Virus record (IMG/VR): IMGVR_UViG_3300025387_000009
Origin: a virus
Lineage: Duplodnaviria > Caudoviricetes
Reading direction: 5' to 3' (one strand)
DNA: 64,000 nt
In this document: one piece after another, positions 17,440 through 54,274 of the stretch
How the letters are laid out: each line of letters begins with the position of its first letter
How positions within the stretch are numbered: the first letter of the stretch is position 1
Position numbers and translations under genes: made by a program
The notes under the pieces: model-generated
Seen by the model: the letters and a program-made list of their open reading frames with translations, nothing else
Told to the model about the DNA's origin: nothing
The model's database searches: none

Positions 17440-17463
17440 GAGGCGATTCTAATTCACAGAATT

Positions 17464-17749: not shown

Positions 17750-19729
17750 ATGAAACTACTAGACACACCAAATCAAATCGAACAGATCGGAAACATCACG
17801 GGCACTTCGTCCTTCAAGATGAAGTCCTCTCGTAAAGCCTTCCAGATCCTCTCTGACCTTTACTCTGACAAGCCTCTTGCCATCGTCAGAGAGCTTGGTT
17901 GCAACGCCAATGATTCTATGGTTGCCTCTGGCAAGGTAGGTCAACCTTTCCACATTCACCTTCCCAACTCTCTTGAGCCTTGGATCACCATTCAGGATTT
18001 CGGAACAGGTATCTCGCACCAGAATATCTACGACATCTACTCCACTTACTTTGAAAGCACCAAGACCAATACCAATGAGCAGATCGGTTGCCTTGGTCTA
18101 GGTAGCAAGTCTCCCTTCTGTTATACGGACAACTTCTCTGTCACCTCCATCCATGATGGTGTCAAGAGAATCTACAATGCCTACTTCGCTCAAGATGGCA
18201 ACCCGACTATTGCCCTGATGAGTCAGGAGAACACCAAGGAAGAAAATGGTGTGGCAGTCCAGATCCCTGTCAAGGAGAAAGATTTCTGTGACTTCATCAA
18301 GGCAGTCCAGAAGGCATTTCGATTCTTCGATGTCAAGCCAACTACCTCTGGTGGGGTGTGCCATTGGTCAGAGGAGAAGCCTACCTTCTCTGGTGAGGAT
18401 TGGATGTTCATGGATTCCTCTAATCAATGGGAGGCATTTGCCATCATGGGAGGAGTCACCTATCCTATCGACCACTACAAGGTTGCCGACAAGTATAACA
18501 ACATCGTTCGCAAAGGTGTGGTTCTGAAGTTCGCTATGGGAGAACTCGACTTTGCTCCCTCTCGTGAACACCTGTCCTATGATGATGCCACTATCAAGGC
18601 AATCAATGACAAGCTGGAAAAAGTCTTGACAGAGATCAAGACCAAGGCAAAAGAGCAGATAGAAAATAAGGATAACATCCTTGACTCCATCCATGCTTTG
18701 CTCTCCTACACCGAGAGGTTCTCCTACTACGGGTCAAGCAATTTTGAACTCAAGAATGTCCAGTTCAAAGGTAAGGACATCACCGAGCCTTACAAGGTTG
18801 TCAAGGATATTCTCAAGACATCTGTGCAGTCCTTCACTCGCTACTCTTACAGGAAGCAGGTCAGCACCAGTTCATCCTTCTCCTTCGACAAGAAGTTCAC
18901 ATGGTATTACGATGATGGATGCAAGAATCCTATCGCTCGTGTCAAGACTCTTGTTCGTGAGACTAATGACACTTATGCCATCCTCTTCACTCAAGAGCAG
19001 AGGGATGACATGATGGATGCAGGATTCCCTGATAACTTCCTCCCTGCCTCCTCCCTGCCTTCCCCTACTGCCAAGAGGAAGCTCTCTGGTGGCACTATCG
19101 TAGTCAAGGCTAAAGAGGACATCACCTGCTATCAGATTGGTCACCCCTACAATGTCTCTTGGGAGTCAAGGACAATCGAACCGACTGAAACAAATCTTCC
19201 CAAGTATTATATCCTGAAGGGGAAGAATTGGGAGTTGAATGTCAAGCTCAATCATCTTCGCATCATCAGCGACAAGGATCGCCTTCGCTCCTATTGTCAA
19301 GCCTTTAATATCTCGCTCAATGATATTGTGCTTGCCAATGACAAGGAGGCAAAGAAGCTCAAGGCAAGGGGTGTCAAGGATTTTGTTGAGGAGTTCAACA
19401 AGAATCACGACCTATCTTGGGTTGACATGAGTGAAGTGGACATCCTCCAATCCTACTCGACTCACAGGTTGCATGACATCGTGAATCGTCAAGAGTTTTC
19501 TGATCTCGCCAACGACAATCCTATCAAGGAGATGCTTGTCAAGCTCCAAAGTTTCAAGCAGAAGTATAGCAAGATCACCGAAATCCTTGGCTACATGGAT
19601 AACAGGGACAGCAATAAAGTTTTCAAGATGGAAGATAAAGTTCTTGACTTCCTCCTCTCCTCTCTGCTAGGAGAGTGGGGTGAGGATCAGAAGATGTATC
19701 TGCTCCTTGCAAAGAAACTGGAAAAATAG
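17750..19729 (+). CDS. rIIA: RIIA protein (N-terminal GHKL/HATPase domain)
   Basis: LYSDKPLAIVRELGCNANDS, IQDFGTG, GCLGLGSKSPF; directly upstream of rIIB. Confidence 0.9.
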   Translation: MKLLDTPNQIEQIGNITGTSSFKMKSSRKAFQILSDLYSDKPLAIVRELGCNANDSMVASGKVGQPFHIHLPNSLEPWITIQDFGTGISHQNIYDIYSTYFESTKTNTNEQIGCLGLGSKSPFCYTDNFSVTSIHDGVKRIYNAYFAQDGNPTIALMSQENTKEENGVAVQIPVKEKDFCDFIKAVQKAFRFFDVKPTTSGGVCHWSEEKPTFSGEDWMFMDSSNQWEAFAIMGGVTYPIDHYKVADKYNNIVRKGVVLKFAMGELDFAPSREHLSYDDATIKAINDKLEKVLTEIKTKAKEQIENKDNILDSIHALLSYTERFSYYGSSNFELKNVQFKGKDITEPYKVVKDILKTSVQSFTRYSYRKQVSTSSSFSFDKKFTWYYDDGCKNPIARVKTLVRETNDTYAILFTQEQRDDMMDAGFPDNFLPASSLPSPTAKRKLSGGTIVVKAKEDITCYQIGHPYNVSWESRTIEPTETNLPKYYILKGKNWELNVKLNHLRIISDKDRLRSYCQAFNISLNDIVLANDKEAKKLKARGVKDFVEEFNKNHDLSWVDMSEVDILQSYSTHRLHDIVNRQEFSDLANDNPIKEMLVKLQSFKQKYSKITEILGYMDNRDSNKVFKMEDKVLDFLLSSLLGEWGEDQKMYLLLAKKLEK

Positions 19730-19767
19730 TATTGACAACACAACCCAAACAAAGTAGTATCGTAATC

Positions 19768-20862
19768 ATGAACAACACCAACAATGCAGTCACCATTACA
19801 GGACAGGGAAAGATCACTGCCTGTATCAACGGATCAATCTACACGATTGACAACACGCACCCCAACTACTTCAAGGCACTTGAGGCAGTCAAGGCACAGG
19901 ATTGGAACGCCTTCCTCGACCATGTAGACATTTCTCGTAAGGTCAAGGATTTTGTTCTCAACTCTGATGTCCAGATTGTAGATGGCATCATCGTCTACAA
20001 GGGTGAGCCTATCCACAATACTCTCACCAAGAGGGTGATTAGTTTCATGCAACAGGACTTGCCCTTCAAGCCTCTGCTGAACTTCCTCTATAACCTGATG
20101 GAGAATCCCTCCTATCGTGCAGTCAATGAACTCTACGATTTTCTGGATGTGGGTGAACTCCCAATCACAGAGGATGGTCACTTCCTCGCCTTCAAGAATG
20201 TTCGTGCAGACTATAAGGACATTCATAGTGGGACATTTGACAACTCCATTGGCAAGGTGTGTGAGATGCCTCGCTACAAGGTGGACGAGGACAAGGATCG
20301 CACTTGCTCAAGTGGATTGCACTTCTGCTCGATTAACTATCTGCCTCACTTTGCAGATCACAACGGAGGTCACACCATGATTGTCAAGATCAATCCCAAG
20401 GATGTGGTGTCAATCCCTGCTGACTACAACAACACCAAGGGTCGTTGCTGTAAGTATGAAGTGATCGGTGAATACACCGAGGATTGGAGGATCAAGCTCA
20501 ATCGTGGAGAGAATGGATTCGACAACGATCTCTACTCTTCTGATGGAGGAGATTACGAGGACGAGGATGAGAACGAGTATTGTGCCAACTGCCAAACCAT
20601 CCTTGATAATTGGGATGAGAACTCCGAGATGCTCTGTAACTCCTGCTACGATGACAAATACTCTGGATGCTACGGAGGAGGATGTGCTGGCAAGACTACA
20701 CTCACCAACGAGGATCAGGTAGGCAACGATGGCAACGATGGTTGCTGTGGTGGTCAATGCGGTTGTGAGAACAACAACCAGTATGGTGTCAAGCCTAATG
20801 GTCATCTCTTCCACAATGTCAGAGATGCCCTTGGTAAGTTTGTCAAGAAGAATGTAGGCTAG
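19768..20862 (+). CDS. rIIB: RIIB protein with Cys-rich acidic extension
   Basis: LPITEDGHFLAFKNVR...RTCSSGLH...VKINPKDVVSIPADY..KGRCCKYEV. Confidence 0.9.
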   Translation: MNNTNNAVTITGQGKITACINGSIYTIDNTHPNYFKALEAVKAQDWNAFLDHVDISRKVKDFVLNSDVQIVDGIIVYKGEPIHNTLTKRVISFMQQDLPFKPLLNFLYNLMENPSYRAVNELYDFLDVGELPITEDGHFLAFKNVRADYKDIHSGTFDNSIGKVCEMPRYKVDEDKDRTCSSGLHFCSINYLPHFADHNGGHTMIVKINPKDVVSIPADYNNTKGRCCKYEVIGEYTEDWRIKLNRGENGFDNDLYSSDGGDYEDEDENEYCANCQTILDNWDENSEMLCNSCYDDKYSGCYGGGCAGKTTLTNEDQVGNDGNDGCCGGQCGCENNNQYGVKPNGHLFHNVRDALGKFVKKNVG

Positions 20863-20870
20863 GACGAGGT

Positions 20871-20909
20871 GGGGAGGAGGGTGTGTTGCCTACTAGCACC
20901 CTCCTCCCC
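20871..20909 (+). terminator. 13-bp GC-rich hairpin after rIIB, no U tract
   Basis: GGGGAGGAGGGTG/CACCCTCCTCCCC. Confidence 0.5.
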
Positions 20910-20953
20910 AAATGGCAACCGAAAAAAGATTTCATTTTACCCAAACTAAAAAT

Positions 20954-21235
20954 ATGATTGACGAAGATGGCGAGATGCTAATGACAAAGGAAGATGCAAT
21001 CCTAGAGATGCTCGACCAAGCAGTAGAGGTTAAAGCATATAGAATTGATGACCTTGGAAACAAAGAGGGAGAGCTTGAGGTTCTTGAATGGGACAGCACA
21101 GCAACAAGTGAGCAGGGAATCCCAGATATCGTTATCGAAGGAAACTGCTTCACTATCTTCCACGATGAATTGCAAGATGCTAGCATCTCTGGTAATACCT
21201 TCACCATTGGTGACAAGCTTTTTGAGGTAATCTAA
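20954..21235 (+). CDS. Acidic hypothetical protein
   Basis: ORF track; start uncertain (20912 or 20954). Confidence 0.55.
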   Translation: MIDEDGEMLMTKEDAILEMLDQAVEVKAYRIDDLGNKEGELEVLEWDSTATSEQGIPDIVIEGNCFTIFHDELQDASISGNTFTIGDKLFEVI

Positions 21236-21426
21236 TGGACTACTACAATCTACATCTTCCCAAGGGTAATCACTGGAACGACGAGTATGATACTTGGATT
21301 GAATCTTCTTATAACAAGGGTCATGCCATTGACAAGTTCCATGACGATGACAGGTATGGCATCACTGCCAATAACCTTGATGACATTCCTATCGTAATCG
21401 GAGGGGAGGATATTTATATAGATTAA
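21235..21426 (+). CDS. Hypothetical protein
   Basis: TAATG overlap. Confidence 0.55.
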   Translation: MDYYNLHLPKGNHWNDEYDTWIESSYNKGHAIDKFHDDDRYGITANNLDDIPIVIGGEDIYID

Positions 21427-21438
21427 GATTTTAAATAA

Positions 21439-21513
21439 GGACTCGAAGCTCAATGGTCGAGCGGCATGCTCATAACGTGAAGGAAGTAGGTTCGATCCCT
21501 ACCGGGTCCACCA
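21439..21513 (+). tRNA. tRNA-CAU (elongator Met or Ile2)
   Basis: Cloverleaf, loop CTCATAA, G1-C72, A73, CCA. Confidence 0.85.
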
Positions 21514-21522
21514 AATATCTAC

Positions 21523-21597
21523 GCATCGTTCATTCAACGGATAGGATCGGGAACTTCTAATTCCTCAATGCAGGTTCGATTCCTGCACGATGCACCA
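21523..21597 (+). tRNA. trnR: tRNA-Arg(UCU)
   Basis: GGGAA-CTTCTAA-TTCCT arm, GTTCGATT, CCA. Confidence 0.92.
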
Positions 21598-21602
21598 ATT
21601 TT

Positions 21603-21676
21603 GGGAGTGAAGCATTAAAGTGATGCAATAAACTTTTAATTTATTGAAGAGGGAGCGTTACCCTCCACTCCTACCA
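21603..21676 (+). tRNA. trnK: tRNA-Lys(UUU), non-canonical T-loop AGCGTTA
   Basis: GGGAGTG/CACTCCT acceptor, ATAAA-CTTTTAA-TTTAT arm, CCA. Confidence 0.8.
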
Positions 21677-21911
21677 GTTTCAAATTACCATGATCGAACT
21701 CCCAATGATGATTAGGACAAAGCAAAACAAGATTATCAATATGATTGATTGTATTAAGTCTTACATTATCTTCAAAATCAGCAATCGGGATTTTATGAGC
21801 AACTTCTACATGAGCATCATAACCACAAACTGCACAGACTTTAGGAGCATCTTTCATAACCACACAACGAGAGTGCCATCTTATGTAAGCGTATGCTGTT
21901 TCACTTTTCAA
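21636..21911 (-). CDS. HNH endonuclease, possibly N-terminally truncated
   Basis: CAVCG..EVAHKIP..NLVLLCPNHHWEFD. Confidence 0.75.
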   Translation of the reverse strand: MKSETAYAYIRWHSRCVVMKDAPKVCAVCGYDAHVEVAHKIPIADFEDNVRLNTINHIDNLVLLCPNHHWEFDHGNLKLVGVEGNAPSSIN

Positions 21912-22015
21912 AAACTTCGCCTTGGGCGAAATCCTTTAAAAGATATTCTTTTACCCAAATAAAAAAAGTTGAAAATAGTTCTTGCATCTTTCTGGGGATA
22001 GTGTATAGTCATTCC

Positions 22016-22245
22016 ATAGTTGAAATGCTACTGGTGAACGGACTAGCTATCCGTAGTCGCCACAGGTCTCAAGTCCTGATCGTGTTGGTAACCCCAGCAC
22101 AAATGCAGAGAGCAACTACAGAAAAACAAGCAGTGCTGTGCAGACTTATGGGGGCGGTTGCAACCCACGCCATAAGATGCCGAGTCGGAGGTATTGAAAA
22201 ATATCACGGCGAAGTCCTTGACGAAGGATCAGCACCTAGTTTTTA
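22016..22245 (+). ncRNA. Candidate structured ncRNA
   Basis: Own promoter TTGCAT-16-TATAGT; several hairpins by eye; no credible ORF. Confidence 0.45.
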
Positions 22246-22262
22246 ATACCAACCACACCACC

Positions 22263-22676
22263 ATGAACCACCAGAAAGTCACACCAGCAGAGAACATCGG
22301 CTTCAAAGACAACAACAACTGCACCATTGTTGCCCTTTCAACTGCGGCGGGTATTCCTTATACCGAAGCATACAAGATCGGAGAGCAGTCTGGACGCAAG
22401 CATGGCAAGGGATTCTATACTGCCAAGTTGATGGAGACTGCTAGGAAAAACGGGATAGAGTATCGCAAGATCAAGACAGGCGGAATTACTGTACAGAAAT
22501 TCTTGCAGAAGTATCCTACTGGTCGTTATGTTGTCAATCGTAGAGATCATGCCTTCGCCATCATTGATGGTACAATCTACGATCACCTTCAAAACAAACC
22601 CATGCAGAGGATCATCGGAATCTGGAATGTTCAATCAAAAAGACTTGACACAATCAAATCCCTCTGCAACTCTTAA
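22263..22676 (+). CDS. Conserved phage protein, possible Cys-His-Asp peptidase fold
   Basis: NNCTIVALSTAAGIPY...HAFAIIDGTIYD. Confidence 0.6.
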   Translation: MNHQKVTPAENIGFKDNNNCTIVALSTAAGIPYTEAYKIGEQSGRKHGKGFYTAKLMETARKNGIEYRKIKTGGITVQKFLQKYPTGRYVVNRRDHAFAIIDGTIYDHLQNKPMQRIIGIWNVQSKRLDTIKSLCNS

Positions 22677-22681
22677 TCCCT

Positions 22682-23254
22682 ATGATCACACCTACCACCA
22701 TCACCAATTACAATCGCACCGAAGAAGAACTGGAAGAGTTCTTGATGTTCGCAATCCTTGTCGCAGGAAAGGGAGCAGAGCAACAGGCAAAGAAACTGGA
22801 TGCTTTTCTCACTCTTTGCTTGCACAAGCATCGCAACAAACCATTTGCCCACATCAAGCATCTTGCGAGTATGGGTTGGCTTGAGATTCACATGAAGCAG
22901 TTCAAGCTAGGTCAATACAATCGTGTTGGCAATGCCTTCAAGGAGATCCTCAAGTTCAAGGGTAAACTCAAGAAGGTGACTATCGAAGAACTGGAGAGTG
23001 TCAAGGGAATTGGTAGCAAGACTGCTAGGTTCTTTGTCCTGCACTCTCGACCAGATGCCAAGGTTGCAGTCCTTGACACTCATATCTTAAAGTGGATGAG
23101 TGAGAAGGGATACAAGGTTCCCAAGGCAACTCCCCCCAAAAAGAAATATGCAGATATTGAGAAATTGTTCTTGACAGAGGCAATCAATCATCAGATGACC
23201 CCAGCAGATTTGGACTTGACTATCTGGAAGTCCTATGCTACAAAGGCAAAATGA
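22682..23254 (+). CDS. HhH-GPD DNA glycosylase/lyase (Ogg-like)
   Basis: LESVKGIGSKTA helix-hairpin-helix with Lys; VAVLDTHILKW with catalytic Asp. Confidence 0.8.
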   Translation: MITPTTITNYNRTEEELEEFLMFAILVAGKGAEQQAKKLDAFLTLCLHKHRNKPFAHIKHLASMGWLEIHMKQFKLGQYNRVGNAFKEILKFKGKLKKVTIEELESVKGIGSKTARFFVLHSRPDAKVAVLDTHILKWMSEKGYKVPKATPPKKKYADIEKLFLTEAINHQMTPADLDLTIWKSYATKAK

Positions 23255-23379
23255 AAACCACATCATTCTCAATCGTCATCAAAGACATCAAGATTCGCAA
23301 GCACTTCGCACCTGCTACCAAGAAGATCAATTCAAAAAAGATCTACAAGAGAAACAAAGTTGTTGACACCAGAGACTAG
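23251..23379 (+). CDS. Small basic protein (42 aa)
   Basis: ATGA overlap; hand-translated. Confidence 0.45.
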   Translation: MKTTSFSIVIKDIKIRKHFAPATKKINSKKIYKRNKVVDTRD

Positions 23380-23564
23380 TTCTGCCATACTTCTAATCCT
23401 ATGAAAGACCCAATTACCCTTTTGCTTCGTTTCTTTGGAAAGGAAGTAAATCCCAAAACCTCCCTGTTGTATAAACACATCATGGAGACAACACACAGCA
23501 ATTGGCACACACGCCTATTCAACAACAACCAAATCGGAAAATACGAATACAACCTGTACAACAA

Positions 23565-24155
23565 ATGAAATCAGTTCTACCAATTCAAATCGAAACACCA
23601 ACTCTCAACGAGAGAACGTTCCATATTGGAGGGTGTGTCCAAGGAGCAAAACCAGTGGCAGGAATCTTCTGCTACAGTTTTGAGCATTGGGATTTTGCAA
23701 GATCTTTAAACAAGAAAGCACTTGAAACTTTCAAGAGTCTTGTCAATGAGATTCTTGAGATTAAACTGGATCAACTTATGGATGATTCGGAGATCTGGCA
23801 GATTGAAGGAAATTGGATGGGAATGCTTCATGACTCATACCACATTCTGGTTGTCAAGAATCTTCAGAAGGCAATCAATACCGACAAGTGGCATATGGAA
23901 AGTGATATGTTCATGGAGGATGCACTCTACCAGATGCTTGAAGAATCCTTTGCTCTTGCTGGTGACAATGAAGGATATGGTGACCATCGTAAGAAGTGGG
24001 CATCGGTTTTCAAGTCCCTTGGTTGGAAAGATGAGAACGAACTCTTCGCAAACGGAACCCCAGAAGATCTTTATTGGGATCTTGACTTTGAGATGCTCAA
24101 GCCAAGCAAGAAGGCAATAAAGGATTACTGTGACTTTCTTCGCAAAGCATATTAA
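23565..24155 (+). CDS. Hypothetical protein
   Basis: ORF track, ATG 23565. Confidence 0.65.
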   Translation: MKSVLPIQIETPTLNERTFHIGGCVQGAKPVAGIFCYSFEHWDFARSLNKKALETFKSLVNEILEIKLDQLMDDSEIWQIEGNWMGMLHDSYHILVVKNLQKAINTDKWHMESDMFMEDALYQMLEESFALAGDNEGYGDHRKKWASVFKSLGWKDENELFANGTPEDLYWDLDFEMLKPSKKAIKDYCDFLRKAY

Positions 24156-24193
24156 TACTTGACAAAAAGTTAAAACCTGTTAAGATATAAAGA

Positions 24194-24290
24194 TTGGTGG
24201 TATCTATTGAGAGTAGTGGCTCAATAGAGTTCATAGGGAAGCCCTTCCTCCTCCTAGTGGTTTGGGGGGAGGAAGGCAACCCGACACCAG
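24194..24290 (+). ncRNA. Candidate structured 5' leader or small RNA
   Basis: After TTGACA/TAAGAT promoter; closing stem TGGTG/CACCA, CTATTGAG/CTCAATAG, long purine/pyrimidine stem. Confidence 0.45.
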
Positions 24291-24306
24291 ACAAAAACAA
24301 AACTAT

Positions 24307-24492
24307 ATGAAGCACATCCCAACCCTCCAAGTCCTCTTCTTCCAAGAACATAATCTGTATGGTTATGAATATGATGACGAAACAGGCTTGACACAGACTG
24401 AATACGGACATCTCACCCTTGATGCCTGTCTTGGTTCTGCCTTCAAACATCTCAAGACTTTCCTTGTCTTGCCAGATGTTGAAACTCGTTAA
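24307..24492 (+). CDS. Hypothetical protein
   Basis: ATG 24307. Confidence 0.55.
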   Translation: MKHIPTLQVLFFQEHNLYGYEYDDETGLTQTEYGHLTLDACLGSAFKHLKTFLVLPDVETR

Positions 24493-24538
24493 AAATAATC
24501 ATTGACATTCTAAATCCTTTCTGCAAGGATCGCACCCT

Positions 24539-24751
24539 ATGACAACCACAAGACCCACCATCCAAATCTCCACGACTATGTTCTGGAGTGTCTACAACAC
24601 CCTTCTCAATACCGAGAGGGCATTAGCCGAACTAGAGGACGAGAACCTCTATCCCAACCAGATCGAAGCACACAAAGATGTTTGCACTGCTCTGGGTCGT
24701 TTGGAAACAATCGTGTCAACTCTAAAGGACATTGATTATAATGCAAACTGA
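24539..24751 (+). CDS. Hypothetical protein
   Basis: ORF track, TTGACA upstream. Confidence 0.6.
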   Translation: MTTTRPTIQISTTMFWSVYNTLLNTERALAELEDENLYPNQIEAHKDVCTALGRLETIVSTLKDIDYNAN

Positions 24752-25004
24752 AACCATACAGAAGAAACCCAGAAAGCCCAAGAAGGTTTCCAGAGACTCG
24801 ACGCACTTCCTGATTCATGTATATGGTGACAAGGAAATGCTTCAGCATCTTTATTCCGTAGGGGATGTTCCCAAGGATAAGAAGAAAGCACTTGACTTGA
24901 TGAAGGATCTCTATACAACGGATCTGATGCACAGCAAGTATTATTTCTATGAACTGGTGGAGCAATCCTTCAAGACAATCGACACCTTGCCCAACAACAA
25001 ATGA
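24741..25004 (+). CDS. Hypothetical protein
   Basis: ORF track. Confidence 0.55.
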   Translation: MQTETIQKKPRKPKKVSRDSTHFLIHVYGDKEMLQHLYSVGDVPKDKKKALDLMKDLYTTDLMHSKYYFYELVEQSFKTIDTLPNNK

Positions 25005-25276
25005 CAACATTCACAGGCGAACAGAGAAGCGAAGGATACGAAAATACCAAATGGCAGAATATCTATATCTCGCCTTCAGTAAATCCATCCAAGAAAGAAG
25101 ATTGGTATCAGGTAATTGATACCAGAAAGAGTTGGAGAAACAATGACCAGTGGACTCGCATCATTAAGAGAGAAGGAGTTAGAATTAGCTTCGCAAAGAA
25201 AAGCCAGATGAGTTCATTTGATCGTGAAGTGGAAATCTATATCAATCATCATTATCCCCTGCCACAAAATGATTAA
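25001..25276 (+). CDS. Hypothetical protein
   Basis: ATGA overlap. Confidence 0.6.
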   Translation: MTTFTGEQRSEGYENTKWQNIYISPSVNPSKKEDWYQVIDTRKSWRNNDQWTRIIKREGVRISFAKKSQMSSFDREVEIYINHHYPLPQND

Positions 25277-25403
25277 CACGATTCTTACGATTCTGCTTGC
25301 AATCGTGCTAGCATATCTGTTACCTTTCAACATCATCCTTGCCCTTTTGCTTGTGGTGATCATCATTCAGTTAAACAAATAAACAACCAACCAAACCAAA
25401 CAC

Positions 25404-26039
25404 ATGCCCAACCATTGCACCAACCTACTGATCTGCACTAGCGGAAAGACCATCGGAGAACTTGTCAAGCCCTATATCTCCGAGAGAACCGATAGACAAG
25501 GAGTGGAGAGATTCCTTGACTTCAATAAGATTGTCCCAATGCCTCCCTGCATTGAAGAGTCTTCTAAGTTTGGAGACATCGACTACATTACCTCAAAGAG
25601 GACTCCAGAAGAGGAAGCCATTGAGAAACAAAAACAGGATGAAAATAAACAAACCTGTGTAGACGAGACAGGTTTTAGCGGATGGTATGAGTGGTGTAAA
25701 GCCAAGTGGGATACCAAGTGGAATTCCTACAGCAACCTTACTCTGGAGGATTCTTCCAATGAGATTGAGGATCTGAGCAGCTACTGCTTCCAGACTGCAT
25801 GGTGTCCCCCAACCAATGTCATTCGTGAACTCGCTAAGATTACCGGAGAGACCATTGAGATGTATTACTACGACGAAGGACACATGTTCTTTGGATGCAC
25901 CACGTTCTCTAAGGATAGTGAGAACGACGAATGCTACGAAGCAGAAGAAGCGGCGGACATCGACCCAGAAAGTGATATCTACAAGTATTGCGATCTTGAC
26001 TATTACTTTGAGATGCATGAAGATGATGATGAAGAGTAA
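25404..26039 (+). CDS. DUF1281/YubB ferredoxin-like domain protein
   Basis: MPNHCTN..DFNKIVPMP..WYEWCKAKWDTKWN..FQTAWCPP. Confidence 0.8.
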   Translation: MPNHCTNLLICTSGKTIGELVKPYISERTDRQGVERFLDFNKIVPMPPCIEESSKFGDIDYITSKRTPEEEAIEKQKQDENKQTCVDETGFSGWYEWCKAKWDTKWNSYSNLTLEDSSNEIEDLSSYCFQTAWCPPTNVIRELAKITGETIEMYYYDEGHMFFGCTTFSKDSENDECYEAEEAADIDPESDIYKYCDLDYYFEMHEDDDEE

Positions 26040-26044
26040 TCATC

Positions 26045-26242
26045 ATGACAGAGAATCAGTACAAAGATCTCACTAGGAAGGCAATGATAAGGGAGTATCT
26101 ACTCTTAAGACAGAATACGATCTCCCTTATCGATGCCACCAATGAACTCTACGGCTTTATAGAAGAGAACTTCCAAGAAGACGATGAGTTTAAAGAAAAA
26201 CTTGACAACTACGATCAACTAGTAGAGAGTATAAATCTGTAA
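26045..26242 (+). CDS. Hypothetical protein
   Basis: ORF track. Confidence 0.6.
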   Translation: MTENQYKDLTRKAMIREYLLLRQNTISLIDATNELYGFIEENFQEDDEFKEKLDNYDQLVESINL

Positions 26243-26300
26243 CCGTGTTTTTATACAACACCGTGTTAAAATACAACACCGTGTTTTATTACCACGCAAG
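26242..26300. repeat. 18-bp-period tandem repeat ATACAACACCGTGT
   Basis: Units at 26253 and 26271 plus a partial unit, then TATTACCACGCAAG. Confidence 0.75.
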
Positions 26301-26345
26301 TACGCACACAACACCCGTAACCCACACACGCTCGTATACCCGCAT

Positions 26346-26546
26346 ATGAAGATTAAAACCAGTATAGTAATTAACTCAGAAGATGCTGACTACATCATCG
26401 AAGTCTCAGAGGATTGTTCAGACTACACGACAATCAAGGAAAGACTTGATGATGAGACAGAGAAGATCGTTCTGACTATCCCAAATAAGCAGATAGAAGA
26501 ATTCTCTCAGGCAATCCAAGAACACATCAGAATCCACGGACTATGA
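26346..26546 (+). CDS. Hypothetical protein
   Basis: ORF track. Confidence 0.55.
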   Translation: MKIKTSIVINSEDADYIIEVSEDCSDYTTIKERLDDETEKIVLTIPNKQIEEFSQAIQEHIRIHGL

Positions 26547-26758
26547 AAATAGCACACGACCCAGATCCCAGAAACATAGGTTACTGTAAGGGGGGTTTAT
26601 CCACGGATATGATGAAGGAGTTTCAAACAACCCCTACGACGGAGGAAGCTTTAATTACGACGAACTCTATAGACACCTTCAATACAAGATTGGATATGAT
26701 GCAGGAGTCGCTGAATACTGTACAGATTTCCATCCAGAAGAACAGTCTTCGTAAGTAA
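26543..26758 (+). CDS. Hypothetical protein
   Basis: ORF track. Confidence 0.5.
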   Translation: MKIAHDPDPRNIGYCKGGLSTDMMKEFQTTPTTEEALITTNSIDTFNTRLDMMQESLNTVQISIQKNSLRK

Positions 26759-26968
26759 TTGTAAGATAATAACTTGTAGGATAAATGAATATAATGTGTT
26801 CATTTATCTTACAACGCAGTCTTGGGTGGATATAGAAGAAACATTTTATTTTACCCAAACTAATATATGGATGTTATATTAGTTAAAAAACATATACGAA
26901 AAAAAATTAATATAACTTAATTCTTTTTTCTTGATTAGTTGCTAGGGATTTGATCTACTGGTTGTCCT

Positions 26969-27223
26969 ATGAGCAAAGTACCACACAACACCGACGAGGG
27001 TTTCGCCCTCACCACCCCAGCCCAGATCGACACCTTCCGTCTGGCTACCATCAAGATGGGATTGAAGGCACTCCAACACGGCATGGTCATCACCAGAGGA
27101 GCCAATGCCAAGTACCTCCTCTCCTGCCTCTCCCAGTATACTGGCAAGAAGTATTCCCCTCGCAAAGATGTCCAGCAGGGAATCGCTGACATCGAAGAGA
27201 TCATGAGGAAGGTCACCTCCTAA
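26969..27223 (+). CDS. Hypothetical protein
   Basis: ORF track, terminator follows. Confidence 0.65.
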   Translation: MSKVPHNTDEGFALTTPAQIDTFRLATIKMGLKALQHGMVITRGANAKYLLSCLSQYTGKKYSPRKDVQQGIADIEEIMRKVTS

Positions 27224-27240
27224 AAATCCCCCAATCAAAA

Positions 27241-27270
27241 ATCCCCTTGCAAGTCAAGGGGATTTTTTTT
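27241..27270 (+). terminator. Rho-independent terminator
   Basis: ATCCCCTTG/CAAGGGGAT plus T8. Confidence 0.85.
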
Positions 27271-27547
27271 GTATTCATACCTTGGGGAGAATTATTTGAA
27301 AGAAATTATTTTACCCAAGGTTCCAATGCCTTGGGCGTATGCTCCAAAAAGTTTGGGTAAAATGAAATCTTTTTTCCTTCAGACTTTTTTGATTTTGTCA
27401 ATAGGGAAAAATAAAAATCACCTACCCCTAAAAATAGCAGTTGACCAATGAGGAGGAATATGATCTACTTGATCCATAGTCAAAAACGGCTATGACCTCT
27501 AAACCGAAGGTGCAAATCGGAAAGGGCGGAAATCCCTTATTGATAGT

Positions 27548-28009
27548 ATGAACATCGAAATCATCAAGCAAATCGTCAAGAGCCGCAAGGGGTCGAACCT
27601 CTCGGCTGTTATCACCAAGACCCTCAAGACCAAAAAGCCCCATGCTGGCAACAAGATCGAGAAGATCACCAAGCTGGTCATTCGTGGTGGCGTTGAATAC
27701 GACAACATGGGAGTTGTCAAGGAAGGTCGTGAGGAAGGAACTCTCCCTTCCGAAAACGCTGGTCTGCCTTGGGGTGAGTGGTCAGAGTATCCCCTTCACA
27801 TTACCCACAAGGGAGCAGATTACGCTCGGTTCTACCCTGCTTCTGGTATCAAGTTCACCCCTCATGTTGAGTATTTCCTCAACGGAGTGAGCGTTGACAA
27901 GAGCGTGATTGAGCCTCTGGTTCTCGCCTCTGAACTCCCCAAGCCCAAGGAGGAAGAGCCTTTGTGCTTTACAATCAAAGCGGAGAATGTAAAGGATATC
28001 ATCCTCTAA
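27548..28009 (+). CDS. Hypothetical protein
   Basis: 153 aa, biased codon usage. Confidence 0.7.
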   Translation: MNIEIIKQIVKSRKGSNLSAVITKTLKTKKPHAGNKIEKITKLVIRGGVEYDNMGVVKEGREEGTLPSENAGLPWGEWSEYPLHITHKGADYARFYPASGIKFTPHVEYFLNGVSVDKSVIEPLVLASELPKPKEEEPLCFTIKAENVKDIIL

Positions 28010-28022
28010 TTTCCCCCCAACC

Positions 28023-28057
28023 GAAGAGAGGGAGTCACCCCCCGACTCCCTCTCTTC
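28023..28057. terminator. Perfect 14-bp hairpin without U tract
   Basis: GAAGAGAGGGAGTC/GACTCCCTCTCTTC. Confidence 0.5.
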
Positions 28058-28111
28058 AACCTTCAAAAAAAAAACAAAACACCGATAAAACATATCATTC
28101 TACCCAACATC

Positions 28112-28375
28112 ATGAAAGACCGCATCCACTCCACGCTCATCGTCGCACTCCTCATCACCCTTCTTTGTGCCATTGATTGCCTCGCCACTAGCCTCTACTG
28201 GCAACATCAAGCAATCGTGCATCATGCCGCTTTCTTTGAAGCATCATCTTGGGGGAATGTCTCCTTCCATTGGGAGGACGATTCCTATGCCCATGCTCCC
28301 TTCCAAGACTTCACCTACTACCAGAACAAGGTGCAGGAAGCCTTCAACAAGACAATCCCTACTGATTCAAAGTAA
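28112..28375 (+). CDS. Membrane-anchored or secreted hypothetical protein
   Basis: N-terminal hydrophobic helix. Confidence 0.55.
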   Translation: MKDRIHSTLIVALLITLLCAIDCLATSLYWQHQAIVHHAAFFEASSWGNVSFHWEDDSYAHAPFQDFTYYQNKVQEAFNKTIPTDSK

Positions 28376-28485
28376 TGGAAGATTCTCGCCTCAATGACCT
28401 GATTGCCTTGCGTGACCAAATCGCTCGTGACTTACAGGATGTTAAAACCAGATAGAATTTATTCTCACCGCCGACAACAGAAACA

Positions 28486-28701
28486 ATGACAACTCTGACT
28501 CCTAGATCAGTCATCGAAAATCTCCTCAATGGCAATCTCACGAAAGCCACAACCGATGCAACATATTATTCTACCCAAACTCACCTTGATGAGGCAATGG
28601 GCATGGGATACAACTACAACGATGCCTTGATCATGGGAGCCTATCTCACGGGTCAAATCTGCTTCCAAGACTACGCCGACAACTTCAACAACAGAAAATG
28701 A
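28486..28701 (+). CDS. Hypothetical protein
   Basis: ORF track. Confidence 0.55.
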   Translation: MTTLTPRSVIENLLNGNLTKATTDATYYSTQTHLDEAMGMGYNYNDALIMGAYLTGQICFQDYADNFNNRK

Positions 28702-28895
28702 ATATCTTCCTCATGCGTAAATACACGACAAGGATCAATCTCTTCCTTGCCTTTGCATTCTTTTTGACTCTCGCATCCTGCTACACAACCTATCTCAACA
28801 AGCTGAAGAAAGATCCAACGCTTCCTTGGCAAGCAATGTTCCTTCAGATCCAGCCTCAACCATCTTGGCAGAGAGCCACCCCATTCAATAGTTAA
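28698..28895 (+). CDS. Small membrane protein
   Basis: TM segment, ATGA overlap. Confidence 0.5.
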   Translation: MNIFLMRKYTTRINLFLAFAFFLTLASCYTTYLNKLKKDPTLPWQAMFLQIQPQPSWQRATPFNS

Positions 28896-28912
28896 TTGCC
28901 ATAGAAAAAACC

Positions 28913-28949
28913 ATCCCCCTGATCTTGTGGTGAGGTCAGGGGGATTTTT
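28913..28949 (+). terminator. Rho-independent terminator
   Basis: ATCCCCCTGATCT/AGGTCAGGGGGAT plus T run. Confidence 0.75.
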
Positions 28950-29090
28950 CTTTCCCCACCTTGGGTAGAGAATACTGAATCATTTTATTTTACCCAAGGT
29001 TTTTTCCTATACGAATTTTCTTGATCTATAGATTATTTTCTATAGAGTTTTCTCCAGAAGGCACAACCTCCTTCTCGCAGTATCACCACT

Positions 29091-29468
29091 ATGGCAACTC
29101 GTCTCTACGTCAACGCTCCCTCCAATGTCATCGAACGCCTCATTGGTGTTCCCATTGGAACTACCGAAATCCTCAACCAGTTTGAGGAGCGCACCAAGTC
29201 GTATGACTCCTACGACCAGTATCAGCTTCGCCAGCTGGAGCCTAACCTCGCCAAACTCCATGACTTCCAAGTCTTTGGATACGGTCGCCTCACTGGTGCG
29301 GCTATGAACTCCATCCGTGCCTTTGCTCCCAAGGACGCTGGCGAGGATTTCCTGTGGTGCGGCTCCACTAGCGATCAGTCCGCTATCGGTAACATTCTGG
29401 AAGATCAGCTAGGCAACCTCGTCCACGACGATATCGTTGCCCAGATTGATTCCCTCTCTTGGAGTTAA
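29091..29468 (+). CDS. Hypothetical protein
   Basis: ORF track. Confidence 0.65.
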   Translation: MATRLYVNAPSNVIERLIGVPIGTTEILNQFEERTKSYDSYDQYQLRQLEPNLAKLHDFQVFGYGRLTGAAMNSIRAFAPKDAGEDFLWCGSTSDQSAIGNILEDQLGNLVHDDIVAQIDSLSWS

Positions 29469-29482
29469 TCCATCTAGAAATT

Positions 29483-29512
29483 CCCCTGTCCTTAATTGGG
29501 CAGGGGTTTTTC
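29483..29512 (+). terminator. Rho-independent terminator
   Basis: CCCCTGTCC/GGGCAGGGG plus T run. Confidence 0.75.
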
Positions 29513-29769
29513 TTTGCCTTCGTACTAGGGTAAAAGTTTCTGAATCTTTTTATTTTACCCAAATCTCCCACCCTTCCAAAATCCCTTGCGCTTCGCCGCA
29601 AATACATTTGGGTAAAATGATTTCTTTTCTCGCTCAGAGTTCTCTCCCTTTGTCAACACCGAAAAAGAAAAAGTTTTTTCCTGCACGAATTTGTTTGAAC
29701 TATTCAGTAATTCCTGTACAGTAAATCCAACCTGAAGAGCCAACAGAATAAAACGGGCAACAACACCAC

Positions 29770-30756
29770 ATGGCACATATGATAATGGACAGGGACACGC
29801 AGGAAGGCGTGGAGGTAGCATGGCACAAGCTGACGGTCGTGAAGGAGAAGCTCTCCCTCAAGGAGGATTGCGGCATCCGTTACCCTATGGTCACGGTTCC
29901 TCTCTCCTACACACTTGGTGACAAGGTGATCGAAACCGAAGCCAAGCAGATCATCTCTCTTGATGATGGTCTCCCCATTGGCAATCCGGTTTCCTCCTCC
30001 TATGGTATGATCACCAACGAGCAGATGCTCGACATGATCAGCGATGCTCTGCTAGGAACCCGTTACGAGATCGTCTCCTTGGGGACAGTCTGCAATCGTG
30101 CAAAGGCATTCGTCAGCATCAAGCTGTCGGATGATATCGTCGCCGCTGGTCGCCTCACAAAGAATGTTCTCAACATCATGTGGGGGCATGGAGGTCTCAT
30201 GAGCGTGATCGGTAACTCTGGGCTGACCGTTGTGGTCTGTCAGAACACGCTCAACGTAGCCTTGGCGGAGAAGGGAGATTTCCGCTTCACCATCAAGCAT
30301 ACCAAGTTCGCCGCTGATCGTCTGGGCGGAATGGCAGAGGCTATCGACCGCCACTGTGGAGTCGTGGCAGAGTTCCAAGCGGCGATGGATTCCCTCGACA
30401 GCATCGACTGTGAGGAGGAGACAGCGAGGAAAATCACAGCAGGGATTCTCACTCCCGCATCGTTTGAAAAGGAAGCCAAGGTTTCCACTCGCACGATGAA
30501 TATGGTCGATAAGGTTGTCAGCCTCTATCGTCATGGAGCAGGGAACAACGGTCGCACGATGGCTGACCTGTTCAATGGAGCCACTGACTACTTCACGCAC
30601 GAGTCGAGCGGAGGTGATGATCCTTGGAAGCAGTTCGTCTCTTCCGAGTTCGGCTCCGCCGCTGACAGCAAGAGGGAGTGGTTCAACGTCCTGACCGACG
30701 ATACCTCTCGCCAACTCATGAAGGCAAGGGGAGAGCAGGTTCTCCTAGTCGCCTAG
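29770..30756 (+). CDS. DUF932/DUF945-family protein
   Basis: WHKL..YGMITNEQML..VVVCQNTLNVAL..IKHT..LFNGATDYFTH. Confidence 0.8.
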   Translation: MAHMIMDRDTQEGVEVAWHKLTVVKEKLSLKEDCGIRYPMVTVPLSYTLGDKVIETEAKQIISLDDGLPIGNPVSSSYGMITNEQMLDMISDALLGTRYEIVSLGTVCNRAKAFVSIKLSDDIVAAGRLTKNVLNIMWGHGGLMSVIGNSGLTVVVCQNTLNVALAEKGDFRFTIKHTKFAADRLGGMAEAIDRHCGVVAEFQAAMDSLDSIDCEEETARKITAGILTPASFEKEAKVSTRTMNMVDKVVSLYRHGAGNNGRTMADLFNGATDYFTHESSGGDDPWKQFVSSEFGSAADSKREWFNVLTDDTSRQLMKARGEQVLLVA

Positions 30757-30775
30757 TCCTTAACTGTCAAGTCAG

Positions 30776-30812
30776 TCCCTCCTAGCCGAAAGGTTGGGAG
30801 GGATTTTCTTTT
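30776..30812 (+). terminator. Rho-independent terminator
   Basis: TCCCTCCTAGCC-GAAA-GGTTGGGAGGGA plus T run. Confidence 0.85.
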
Positions 30813-30939
30813 GCCTGATGCGTAACAATACGCTTGACATTTCCACCAGACCCTACTGGGAAAAGATATCATTTTACCCAAGCCGCTCCTATTAGACGAC
30901 ATTGGATTTTTGAGCTTGACAAAAACCGAGGGGAGCCTA

Positions 30940-31095
30940 GAAAAATCTACCCTATATGGCTTCGTAAGACAAGGTGGGGTGGGGCGCAGTGCGCCCTAGT
31001 ACCCCCTATAGGGAAGGGGTGGGGGTATTTTTAAAGTACCCCCTATCGGGTATAAGGATTTGGCGGGTTCTCTTATAGGGAATTCTTATTATACC
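30940..31095. repeat. G/C-run palindromes and AGTACCCCCTAT direct repeat
   Basis: GGGGGTA/TACCCCC IR; repeat near 30998 and 31035; non-coding. Confidence 0.55.
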
Positions 31096-31097
31096 CT

Positions 31098-31724
31098 TTA
31101 AGGTATAAAGAAATATTCAGAATCTAAATCATAAGTTTTCCCAATCTCAGGGGAAATAGTTTGAGGAAATCTTCTGAATACATGACCCATATAAGTTTTG
31201 TGGTAATACTTTTTAGTTTCCGTGGAGCTAGAGGTTATTGAACGGTTTGCTACCTTGTAAACGCTTGTAACATTTGGGTAGTCTTCTAAGAGGTCATTTA
31301 CACCGTTATAGGTTTTTAACAATATACCATCTTTTGTAAACTTTCCTAGGGTTCCTTTAAATGAAACGTGTTTATCTTTCCCTTGTATTATTAATCCTGT
31401 ATCAATGGCATGCTTTACGTTTTGCTTTGCTGTAACCCATTCTAGGTTCTCTAATCTATAATCGTTTTTATCTCCATTTATATGGTTTATCATGGGATAG
31501 TTGTTTGGGTTTGGAATAAAGTATAGAGCTAAAAGTCTATGAATATAGTAAGTGGTGTATCTTCCTTTTATCTTTAAGGTAACGAGAGGATAGCGTTTTG
31601 TCTTTTTGACTTTCAGTATTCTGGGTGATTTAAAACAAAAGCTTTTAAATCTACCTTTATTGCTTACTTGGTATTTGTTATTTGTGTCTTCTATTGTTTT
31701 CCAGATTTCTTCTTTATTTTCCAT
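31098..31724 (-). CDS. NUMOD4-HNH homing endonuclease
   Basis: EEIWKTI..YQVSNKGRFKS; HRLLALYFI..INHINGDKNDYRLENLEWVT. Confidence 0.9.
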   Translation of the reverse strand: MENKEEIWKTIEDTNNKYQVSNKGRFKSFCFKSPRILKVKKTKRYPLVTLKIKGRYTTYYIHRLLALYFIPNPNNYPMINHINGDKNDYRLENLEWVTAKQNVKHAIDTGLIIQGKDKHVSFKGTLGKFTKDGILLKTYNGVNDLLEDYPNVTSVYKVANRSITSSSTETKKYYHKTYMGHVFRRFPQTISPEIGKTYDLDSEYFFIP

Positions 31725-32256
31725 ATTTTTCTTTTACGTATTCTACAAATCCTCTTAAGACTCCTATTCTTGTGCTTTGGTTTACATTTTTACCAAAGTG
31801 AATGGTGTAATAGTCTTTGTTCTTTTCAGACCATTCTTGGTTTTCCTGTATAAGAATAAAGGGATCTTTTAGGTTTAAATTTCTTAATTCCTCTAGGTAA
31901 TCTATTTTGTAAACGCTTTTATACTCTTGCATTGCTTTTTCCCACCAGTAGGTTTCATAGAATCCCATTGATGTTCTATTTGATTTTATCCAATCCCACA
32001 TAAAGGAGGATGAATTGCAATTGGGAGCCATTTCATGACATTCATTACACAAGAGGACGTAATTCTCTGGTGAGTCTTTTCCTCCTAGGGCATGAGGAAT
32101 GATATGACATCTTTCCGTATCTCTTTCACAACCACAGTTCCAACACATGATGTCGGCTTCTGACCAATCGAAATTCAATTCTCCTTCATAGATAAGATTC
32201 GTCCAATAGGCGATAATCTTATCTTTGGTTGTTTTCATTGACTTTCTCTTTGTCAT
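31714..32256 (-). CDS. HNH endonuclease
   Basis: CWNCG..RCHIIPHALGG..ENYVLLCNECH. Confidence 0.85.
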   Translation of the reverse strand: MTKRKSMKTTKDKIIAYWTNLIYEGELNFDWSEADIMCWNCGCERDTERCHIIPHALGGKDSPENYVLLCNECHEMAPNCNSSSFMWDWIKSNRTSMGFYETYWWEKAMQEYKSVYKIDYLEELRNLNLKDPFILIQENQEWSEKNKDYYTIHFGKNVNQSTRIGVLRGFVEYVKEKYGK

Positions 32257-37141: not shown

Positions 37142-37236
37142 GGTGGGTTAGTGTAATTGGAAGCACGATATAGTTTATACCTATAACTTCCCTAGATGAG
37201 GGATTAGCATGGGTTCGATTCCCATACCCACTTCCA
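37142..37236 (+). tRNA. Atypical tRNA with UAU anticodon, long variable arm, U73
   Basis: GGTGGGT/ACCCACT acceptor, TATAG-TTTATAC-CTATA arm, 23-nt V region, GGTTCGATTCC, CCA. Confidence 0.75.
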
Positions 37237-47257: not shown

Positions 47258-47465
47258 GGTTGGGGGGTAGCAAATCACCTAACTAGGAAACGAATCTTTG
47301 CTGATTGGTAAGTTGGGATGACTTTCTGAATGGTAACTAGCGAAGCTACAGGAGCTATGATGTTACTGATTAGAACAACATTAGCTATACGGATAGGGCA
47401 GCGTTCCACGCAGCCTTGCCCGTTGAAGAAGGAACAAAGTGCGCAACAAAATCCTTCAAACACCA
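47258..47465 (+). ncRNA. Candidate ~210-nt structured ncRNA ending in ACCA
   Basis: TTTACA-16-TAAGAT promoter, five or more hairpins, paired ends, T run after. Confidence 0.55.
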
Positions 47466-47518
47466 CGTTTTTTTTAAATGGTTTATTGAAATGTATCGTC
47501 ATAACTATAAGTATTTTT

Positions 47519-48001
47519 ATGGATAATAAATGTATATTTTGTAGTAGACAAATTTTAAATAAGGGTTCATTAACCGCTCATCAAAAAACATGCAAACAAA
47601 ATCCTAATAAAATTAAATTTTATCATTCACCAAAAGCAGGTGGTCAAAGAGGATTAGTTGGTTGGAGTAAAGGTAAAATATTTGAAAAAGAAAATCTCGA
47701 AAGGAATTTACAATTGATAGAATCCGGTGAATATAAAAAATTTGGAGAAACTCACATAAGAAGAAGAATTAAAAAATATTTGATTCATAAGCATGGTCAT
47801 AAATGCATGATATGTGGTTTAACTGAATGGAGAGGTGTACAAATACCTTTAGTTGCTGATCATATAGATGGTAATTCTGAAAATAATGATCTCTCAAATT
47901 TTAGAATAATTTGCAATAATTGTGATTCCATACTGCCAACATTCAAAGCTAAAAATACAGGTAAAGGAAGAAAGGGAAGATATTTAAAAAAATATTCTTG
48001 A
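47519..48001 (+). CDS. HNH endonuclease with N-terminal C2H-type finger
   Basis: CIFC..HQKTC; CMICG..ADHIDGNSENN..NFRIICNNCD; TAAGTA upstream. Confidence 0.88.
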   Translation: MDNKCIFCSRQILNKGSLTAHQKTCKQNPNKIKFYHSPKAGGQRGLVGWSKGKIFEKENLERNLQLIESGEYKKFGETHIRRRIKKYLIHKHGHKCMICGLTEWRGVQIPLVADHIDGNSENNDLSNFRIICNNCDSILPTFKAKNTGKGRKGRYLKKYS

Positions 48002-48034
48002 TATAAAAAAATAATTTGATAAGATATTAAAAGT

Positions 48035-48123
48035 GGGAGCGTGACTGAGTGATTTAAAGTATCCGATTACTAATCGGAAGAACCCAAAAGGTTCCGTGGG
48101 TTTGAATCCCACCGCTCCTTCCA
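48035..48123 (+). tRNA. trnS: tRNA-Ser(ACU)
   Basis: TCCGA-TTACTAA-TCGGA, long arm GAACC/GGTTC, U73, CCA. Confidence 0.8.
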
Positions 48124-48128: not shown

Positions 48129-48220
48129 GGCAGGTTGGTAGAGTCCGGTTTATTGCACCGCACTTGAAATGCGGAGAACCTTTATCGGTTCCGTGGGTTC
48201 GAATCCCACACCTGCTTCCA
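48129..48220 (+). tRNA. trnS: tRNA-Ser(UGA)
   Basis: CCGCA-CTTGAAA-TGCGG, long arm, U73, CCA. Confidence 0.92.
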
Positions 48221-48226
48221 TTTTTT

Positions 48227-48298
48227 GCCTGATGAGACAGCAAGAGAAGTCCACGGTCTGCAAAACCGTTATGTTCGGAGCGTTACCGAAATCAGGCT
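48227..48298 (+). tRNA. trnC: tRNA-Cys(GCA), T-loop AGCGTTA, CCA not encoded
   Basis: GCCTGAT/ATCAGGC, ACGGT-CTGCAAA-ACCGT, U73. Confidence 0.78.
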
Positions 48299-48342
48299 CA
48301 TTTTTTATGATTTTTAGACCCTTGCCTAGTAAGTATATGTAT

Positions 48343-48936
48343 ATGAATAATTTTTACTATCTATACAAAATAACCAATTTAATTAATAAAAAATATTATA
48401 TAGGTGTCCATAGTACTAATAATTTAGATGATGGGTATATGGGATCTGGAAAATTGATATTAAAAGCTATAGAAAAATACGGAAATAAAAATTTTAAAAA
48501 AGAAATATTAGAGTGGTTTAATACAGAAGAAGAAATGTACAAAAAAGAAATTGAAATTGTTAATGAAGAATTCGTAAATGATAAAACAAACTACAATGTC
48601 AAGCTTGGTGGACCAGCTAATTTTTATTATGTAAATAAAAACAAATTAAACCATAAAAAAAATCAACACTTAATACATGCTAACAAATTAAAATCTGATC
48701 CAGAATATAGAAAAAGATTTGTTGAAAAAATGAAAAATGCCTTATCAAAGGAAAAACGATTAGAGTATAGCAAAAGGATGAAAGAGAATAATTGTAATAG
48801 AAATAGATTTTGGATATCAAACGATTTTTATAAAAAATCTAAAATGGTAACACAAGAACAGTTTGATGTTCTGTTAAATCAAAATTGGTATAAGGGTGTA
48901 AAATATAGAAAGAATAGATATTCAAATCCTACTTGA
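48343..48936 (+). CDS. GIY-YIG (Seg-like) homing endonuclease
   Basis: YLYKITNLINKKYYIG..YMGSG..KYG..NFKKEILE; TAAGTA 7 nt upstream. Confidence 0.9.
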   Translation: MNNFYYLYKITNLINKKYYIGVHSTNNLDDGYMGSGKLILKAIEKYGNKNFKKEILEWFNTEEEMYKKEIEIVNEEFVNDKTNYNVKLGGPANFYYVNKNKLNHKKNQHLIHANKLKSDPEYRKRFVEKMKNALSKEKRLEYSKRMKENNCNRNRFWISNDFYKKSKMVTQEQFDVLLNQNWYKGVKYRKNRYSNPT

Positions 48937-53824: not shown

Positions 53825-54274
53825 GGGGGTGTACTGGTTTCGACTTAATTGTTGAATGCTATGTATGCAAGCAGTAGTTGATCGCTTGGCTACTATAAAA
53901 GGCGATTAAAACATAAACGCAAAGGCTATAACCAATGCAGTTAATGTAGTCAAGTCATTCGTGACAAATGTTGCAGAGTCTCTCTTCTCCCAAGAAGAAG
54001 ATTACTGTCTCATGGCAGCATAAACACCAAGAGTAGATCCTATTAAGCTCTTGTCGAATCACAATAGGTTGAAGTAGTTCTTGTGATACTCGTAAAATAA
54101 GTGCAAGCGGTGGTATGATGGTCGTTATTCACTCATACAGGTAGGTCTCTAAACATAGATAGGTTGGCATTGCCTTGTTACCTTTAGACAACGAAAGTAC
54201 GAAGTTTGCCAAAGCTTGTGTAGATTATATAGTACCCAATATTAAGGACGGGAGTTCAACTCTCCCCACCTCCA
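53825..54274 (+). ncRNA. ssrA: tmRNA, 450 nt, tag ORF 53919..54023
   Basis: 5' GGGGGTGTACTGGTTTCGAC; 3' GGACGGGAGTTCAACTCTCCCCACCTCCA; G3-U70; tag ends YCLMAA. Confidence 0.92.

Follow-up and report, generated by a model that had tools for sequence, protein, structure and literature searches.

In split codon boxes, tRNAs with adenine at position 34 (A34) have been described as "universally missing", and in phages too they have been regarded as "prohibited" (2021 review, PMC8007984). In GtRNAdb, ANN genes for two-codon boxes are sporadic only and always stand beside a GNN gene; the survey that reported this left out phages and CPR (Patescibacteria) bacteria (Raval et al. 2026, bioRxiv 10.64898/2026.05.15.725136). 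The near-universal absence of ANN tRNAs has been called a paradox, since engineered versions are tolerated in E. coli, where an over-expressed Ser-tRNA(ACU) improved growth (Raval et al. 2026). According to papers cited in that study, unmodified A34 can read a whole four-codon box in several systems. [quoted passage not shown] These tRNAs serve four-codon boxes, in which reading all four codons is harmless, whereas an ACU anticodon belongs to the split Ser/Arg box. Our literature search for phage Ser(ACU) yielded no relevant report, and the main text of Morgado and Vicente (2019) holds no anticodon detail.

The window analyzed here, a stretch of 64,000 nucleotides, is part of a large T4-like phage and contains a tRNA-Ser(ACU) gene at positions 48035-48123 on the plus strand. 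The earlier note had described this gene as a well-formed class II tRNA-Ser, and this was confirmed. ARAGORN called a class II tRNA-Ser with the anticodon ACT, and Rfam RF00005 matched the gene with 53.0 bits (gathering score 29, E = 1.5e-8). At minimum energy the sequence folds into a clover-leaf that has an extra arm of 5 bp (-30.9 kcal/mol, z = -3.6), and none of 200 shuffled sequences reached this energy. The anticodon loop is UUACUAA (TTACTAA in the DNA), and the 3' CCA is encoded in the gene. These results establish that the window carries a real class II serine tRNA gene.

In its body, the tRNA resembles bacterial and phage tRNA-Ser(GCU) of the E. coli serV type, which are class II tRNAs whose extra arm is long and whose D stem has 3 bp, C11-G24 among them. 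The extra arm of Ser(ACU) is about 17 nt long, with a 5-bp stem (GAACC/GGTTC) in common with a neighboring tRNA-Ser(UGA), and its D stem, as read from the fold and the sequence, consists of A10-U25, C11-G24 and U12-A23. C11-G24 is an identity element for E. coli SerRS. Ser(ACU) also has in common with tRNA-Ser(GCU) the place that it occupies within phage tRNA clusters and the bases C35, U36 and A37, which form a t6A context. Unlike the GCU type, the tRNA has A34, which would form a Watson-Crick pair at AGU and would probably be a poor reader of AGC, and the lineage of the window has U73, G1-U72 and A19-U56. The usual serine discriminator G73 is thus absent, and the same G1-U72 and U73 are seen in the Ser(UGA) neighbor. 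Among the matches listed, U73 was present in 24 of 117 viral ACT, 11 of 113 viral GCT and 17 of 47 scored viral UGA serine tRNAs, so it is a common variant among viral tRNA-Ser. Leucine and tyrosine identity require A73, and U73 speaks against both. A20 is an identity element of ArgRS; it is missing from Ser(ACU), in which position 20 is U. Body and anticodon both specify serine, so the mismatch between the two that marks a mistranslator is absent. Charging with serine by SerRS is probable, with U73 and G1-U72 weighing against it.

ARAGORN found 17 tRNAs and one tmRNA in the window, and the total number of tRNAs lies between 17 and 19. The earlier note had also stated that the window has no Ser(GCU) gene, and this holds: the only serine tRNAs called by ARAGORN in the 64 kb, which are part of a larger genome, are ACT and its tandem partner TGA at 48129-48220 (+), 5 nt downstream and found by both ARAGORN and Rfam. 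The other tRNAs make up a typical set of readers for codons that end in A or U (Arg UCU, Ile UAU, Leu UAA, Thr UGU, Glu UUC and others). Among them is the phage's own reader of AGA, tRNA-Arg(UCU), at 21523-21597 (+) (ARAGORN, Rfam), which is a competitor for any misreading of AGA by Ser(ACU). Upstream of Ser(ACU), a sigma-70-like promoter match (TTGATA, 16 nt, TG-TAAGAT; 9 of 12 consensus positions) at 47998-48025 (+) ends 9 nt before the 5' end of the tRNA; the regional number of such sites is not above that of shuffled sequences.

IMG/VR was searched with the anticodon arm, position 34 being left free (N). Two independent metagenome contigs carry the same gene, again with ACT (L007, 97% identical, and L008, 94%), and a diverged copy in L009, about 61% identical with position 34 masked, keeps ACT and has compensatory substitutions in the stems of the acceptor and the extra arm. 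The contig that holds L008 (G002) has a rearranged gene order relative to the window, and the proteins shared by the two are 47-73% identical. Their shared coding DNA is 69-77% identical, whereas the ACT and TGA tRNA pair is 94.4% identical over 213 nt. This comparison shows that Ser(ACU) is under purifying selection. Moreover, A19-U56 stands in place of the universal tertiary pair G19-C56 in the Ser(ACU) of the window, L007 and L008 (D loop GAGTGA, T loop TTTGAAT), while L009 and the neighboring Ser(UGA) retain G19-C56. A compensated tertiary pair of this kind would be hard to explain in a dead gene.

The earlier note had raised the possibility that the true anticodon is GCT and that A34 is an assembly error. 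This is effectively excluded because ACT is kept across L007, L008 and L009. Single ANN tRNA predictions in genome databases often score low, which counts in favor of taking the gene for a pseudogene, for an assembly error or for a tRNA-like sequence that arose by chance. This reading is scarcely credible, given the Rfam score, the compensated A19-U56 pair, the conservation of the tRNA pair relative to its coding flanks, and the recurrence of ACT in independent contigs and in the genome of a cultured phage (see below). Conservation and covariation led us to reject both assembly error and pseudogene.

With position 34 masked, the nearest relatives of the window Ser(ACU) after L007 and L008 were the Ser(UGA) genes that these phages carry (66-67% identical), and the other ACT tRNAs among the matches listed were at most 61% identical to it. 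The ACU and UGA genes have in common the variable arm (identical in L008), the T stem, G1-U72 and U73; the 5' strand of the acceptor stem, the D arm and the anticodon arm are completely different. From the shared parts and the ranking of relatives, the pair looks like a tandem duplicate or a product of gene conversion with an AGY-type anticodon arm. An identical anticodon stem is found on viral GCT genes of L001 and L004.

The distribution of Ser(ACT) was surveyed with the pattern TTACTAA, 20-32 nt, GGTTCGAATCC, and the hits were then typed by ARAGORN; the surveys are thus pattern-selected for the loop TTNCTAA and a canonical T loop. IMG/VR contained at least 119 stretches with the pattern, at least 113 of which are class II Ser(ACT) of 82-92 nt. 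A species-representative genome collection contained at least 120 stretches, at least 88 of them Ser(ACT), and many of these belong to Patescibacteria (Saccharibacteria, Paceibacterota, Microgenomates). The 88 listed genomic ACT loci carry 42 GCT genes in all. The Ser(ACT) type is widespread in viral contigs and Patescibacteria. According to the earlier note, A34 in bacteria is essentially confined to Arg(ACG) and some Leu(AAG); this agrees with the reviews but is too narrow in view of how common Ser(ACT) is in these two groups. Among the matches listed, when position 34 was masked, the nearest neighbor was also ACT for 112 of 117 viral and 86 of 87 genomic ACT tRNAs, and no cluster at 90% identity or above mixed ACT with GCT. 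These results indicate that the ACT tRNAs form lineages and are not sporadic G-to-A mutants. Many Ser(ACT) genes (within L130-L249) stand on short contigs, bearing several tRNAs, in MAGs that are labelled Pseudomonadales or Gammaproteobacteria; such contigs may be of phage origin and misbinned, in which case the genes would not be cellular. At L010:4651-4727 (-) there is a 77-nt class I tRNA with the anticodon ACT and no long extra arm. In the anticodon arm it is identical to the window Ser(ACU) and to the tRNA-Arg(TCT) genes of L003 and L006, and it may combine a Ser anticodon with the body of an Arg-type tRNA.

A Ser(ACU) gene is also present in a cultured phage. Salmonella phage Munch has a complete genome sequence (MK268344.1), in which the gene at 266654-266744, annotated only as "tRNA-Ser", has the anticodon ACT. 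Munch encodes 12 tRNAs, including Ser(UGA) and Arg(UCU); Ser(GCU) is absent. Like that of the window, the tRNA of Munch, a jumbo phage, is a class II Ser(ACT). It differs in having C32 instead of U32, G19-C56, A73 and other stems, and it does not adjoin Ser(UGA).

ACT replaces GCT in phage tRNA sets. Among the matches listed, just 1 of the 113 viral ACT loci also carried a GCT gene, and none of 110 control loci, which had been chosen from the matches listed for the GCT pattern, carried ACT. Contig G002 likewise has 16 tRNAs, with ACT and TGA and without GCT. We compared the codon usage of the two kinds of loci after clustering their tRNAs at 90% identity, which left 48 ACT and 76 GCT clusters among the matches listed. 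By crude ORF calls on these short, pattern-selected loci, AGT was used 17.6 times per 1000 codons in ACT loci and 12.1 times in GCT loci (P = 1.5e-5), about 1.5 times as often. AGT made up 25% of the serine codons in ACT loci and 18% in GCT loci among the same matches (P = 7.8e-6). After regression on GC content, the ACT effect among the matches listed was +4.2 AGT per 1000 codons (t = 4.0). AGC (8.4 vs. 8.6) and AGR (20.1 vs. 21.1) did not differ between ACT and GCT loci among these matches. The ratio AGT/(AGT+AGC) was discarded as a signal because GC content explains it and the ACT term is only 0.016. The true difference lies in the absolute use of AGT and in its share of the serine codons. 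The window itself uses AGT and AGC 196 and 97 times, respectively (112 and 37 times in the AT-rich 32-64 kb part that holds Ser(ACU)). Its AGT usage of 13.6 per 1000, or 21% of the serine codons, is only middling for the ACT class.

Three readings of the gene had been offered by the earlier note: an unmodified A34 that serves AGU codons, Arg-to-Ser misreading, and escape from a GCU-specific nuclease. The reading with unmodified A34 is the best supported of the three, with the GCT slot taken and AGT alone enriched. We consider it somewhat more probable than its negation that the host SerRS charges Ser(ACU) and that the tRNA, with unmodified A34, reads AGU in the place of the GCU tRNA and leaves AGC to the host. 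Under this proposal, Ser(ACU) would be transcribed together with the adjacent Ser(UGA), and host SerRS, which senses the long extra arm and not the anticodon, would probably charge it. A34 would most likely stay unmodified, A37 would be expected to receive t6A from the host, and AGU would be decoded through the Watson-Crick A34-U pair. The tRNA would fill the place of tRNA-Ser(GCU) in the phage set, and the GCU tRNA of the host would serve AGC. The engineered ANN set in E. coli offers a parallel, in that Ser-tRNA(ACU) was tolerated there and even beneficial (Raval et al. 2026).

Deamination of A34 ranks second after this reading, and we regard it as a minority prospect. The host TadA or an unrecognized phage enzyme would convert A34 to I34, and the resulting ICU anticodon would read AGU, AGC and some AGA; this would explain how a phage set without GCT still reads AGC. 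The loop UUACUAA agrees with the extended TadA motif YUACGAA at six of seven positions (PMC11472039), and Ser(ACU) has A34, U33, C35, A37 and A38 in common with tRNA-Arg(ACG), the TadA substrate that carries I34. Unlike tRNA-Arg(ACG), it has U36 instead of G36 and a class II body, and its I34 form would misread AGA. G36 is found at every known TadA site, the core being UACG in E. coli and Klebsiella and UAMG in S. pyogenes (PMC11472039); Ser(ACU) keeps U33, A34 and C35 and departs from this core at position 36. However, the engineered Phe-tRNA(AAA) of E. coli was seemingly edited to I34, as judged indirectly from sequencing, and earlier work on His-tRNA(AUG) editing is cited in the same study; both tRNAs are without G36 (Raval et al. 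2026). The related contig G002 encodes a tRNA-Arg(ACG), so its host must possess TadA. This gene (L368:16803-16879) is a classic TadA substrate, and the two A34 tRNAs of the contig would meet the same host deaminase. Against I34, inosine pairs with U by wobble, just as G does, and ICU would therefore bring no gain over GCU at AGU, yet AGT is the only codon enriched. ICU would also place serine at AGA, which is the main arginine codon of the phage. No deaminase domain was found in the 76 ORFs of at least 90 aa in the window. PF00383 matches near the tRNA clusters of G001 and G002 were considered as TadA and rejected as ComEB-type dCMP deaminases (60 and 54 bits to ComEB vs. 19 and 22 to TadA), and the two deaminases of Munch are annotated as dCMP deaminase and cytidine deaminase.

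The change from G34 to A could instead be kept mainly to resist a host anticodon nuclease that recognizes GCU, or another tRNA-directed defense, with AGY decoding retained; this we find improbable. Anticodon-loop changes that are predicted to confer resistance to host tRNases have been documented in phage tRNAs (van den Berg et al. 2023, PMC10264068), Tyr tRNAs are reported to rescue phages from retron effectors (PMC11555353), and Ser(ACU) lies in the tRNA cluster of a phage with many defense-related features. The change in Ser(ACU) sits in the anticodon itself and alters decoding. PMC10264068 names no nuclease against Ser(GCU) and lists this tRNA as not targeted. Since A34 probably reads AGC poorly and AGC is used equally in ACT and GCT loci, the host GCU tRNA would still be needed. 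In many Patescibacteria ACT is kept beside GCT, where escape from the organism's own nuclease makes little sense, and nuclease escape does not predict the link with AGT usage. Misreading of AGA is a real risk, because AGA is the commonest arginine codon of the window (284 occurrences, 19.7 per 1000, vs. 196 AGT) and unmodified A34 can read all four codons of a box in the systems mentioned above. A device that inserts serine at AGA and AGG by superwobble or as ICU, and so harms the host or diversifies phage proteins, is nevertheless very unlikely. It would hurt the phage most, whose own genes are rich in AGA and which encodes the cognate tRNA-Arg(UCU), and the body and anticodon of Ser(ACU) agree on serine, unlike those of known mistranslators. 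Among the matches listed, AGR usage is not shifted in ACT loci, and neither is the co-occurrence of Arg(UCU); the latter, considered as a compensation, was present on 38 of 113 ACT and 37 of 110 GCT loci, which is no difference. We rate just as low the variant in which proteome-wide Arg-to-Ser recoding or sabotage of the host is restrained on phage genes by Arg(UCU). In alignments with three rIIA homologues, AGR codons stand opposite R/K more often than S/T, in small counts; this leans to the standard code, and the phage's own tRNA-Arg(UCU) argues for it as well. Arg-to-Ser misreading as the purpose of the tRNA has no support, AGA being the main arginine codon and ACT loci neither avoiding AGR nor carrying extra Arg(UCU), and deliberate mistranslation is unlikely.

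Textbooks as well as reviews regard A34 as excluded from split boxes in every organism and in phages (PMC8007984). Ser(ACU) is kept across diverged phages, replaces GCU and tracks AGU usage, which shows that the rule is not absolute. We found no description in the literature searched of a natural, conserved phage tRNA-Ser(ACU) that replaces the GCU type, and the examples in GenBank are unremarked; such genes are labelled merely "tRNA-Ser" and have so been overlooked. Salmonella phage Munch, which is cultured on a tractable host, provides natural test material.

Megablast of 9 kb revealed no close cultured relative of the phage, its sole match being 54 nt of tRNA sequence in Cronobacter phage GAP32, and the Ser(ACU) sequence had no match by blastn. 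Its rIIA gene matches phrog_612 (E = 2.5e-120), with closest matches 30-42% identical, and rIIB comes after it. CheckV rated a related 65-kb contig as 31% complete, which suggests a genome size of about 200 kb. The tRNA pair is flanked by virion proteins and by HNH and GIY-YIG homing endonucleases, the genes of which (47330-48001 and 48307-48936, both +) bracket a Ser-Ser-(Cys-like) tRNA block. The GIY-YIG ORF listed as 48169-48936 starts inside tRNA-Ser(UGA), and translation more likely begins at the in-frame ATG at 48307. The Cys-like element at 48227-48298 (+), directly 3' of Ser(UGA), forms a perfect clover-leaf with the anticodon GCA; it is missed by ARAGORN and by Rfam even at E = 10, its T loop is AGCGTTA (vs. 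TTCRANY) and its D loop is without GG. The region 16000-32000, which contains rIIA and rIIB, has 43-45% GC compared with 33-36% elsewhere, and its serine codon choice differs (AGT:AGC 29:34 vs. 112:37 in the 32-64 kb part). A full-length phage tmRNA (Rfam 104 bits) lies at 53825-54274 (+) between tRNA-Val and tRNA-Ala. The tRNA-Ile(UAU) at 37142-37236 (+) is 95 nt long and has a long extra arm, which is unusual for an isoleucine tRNA.
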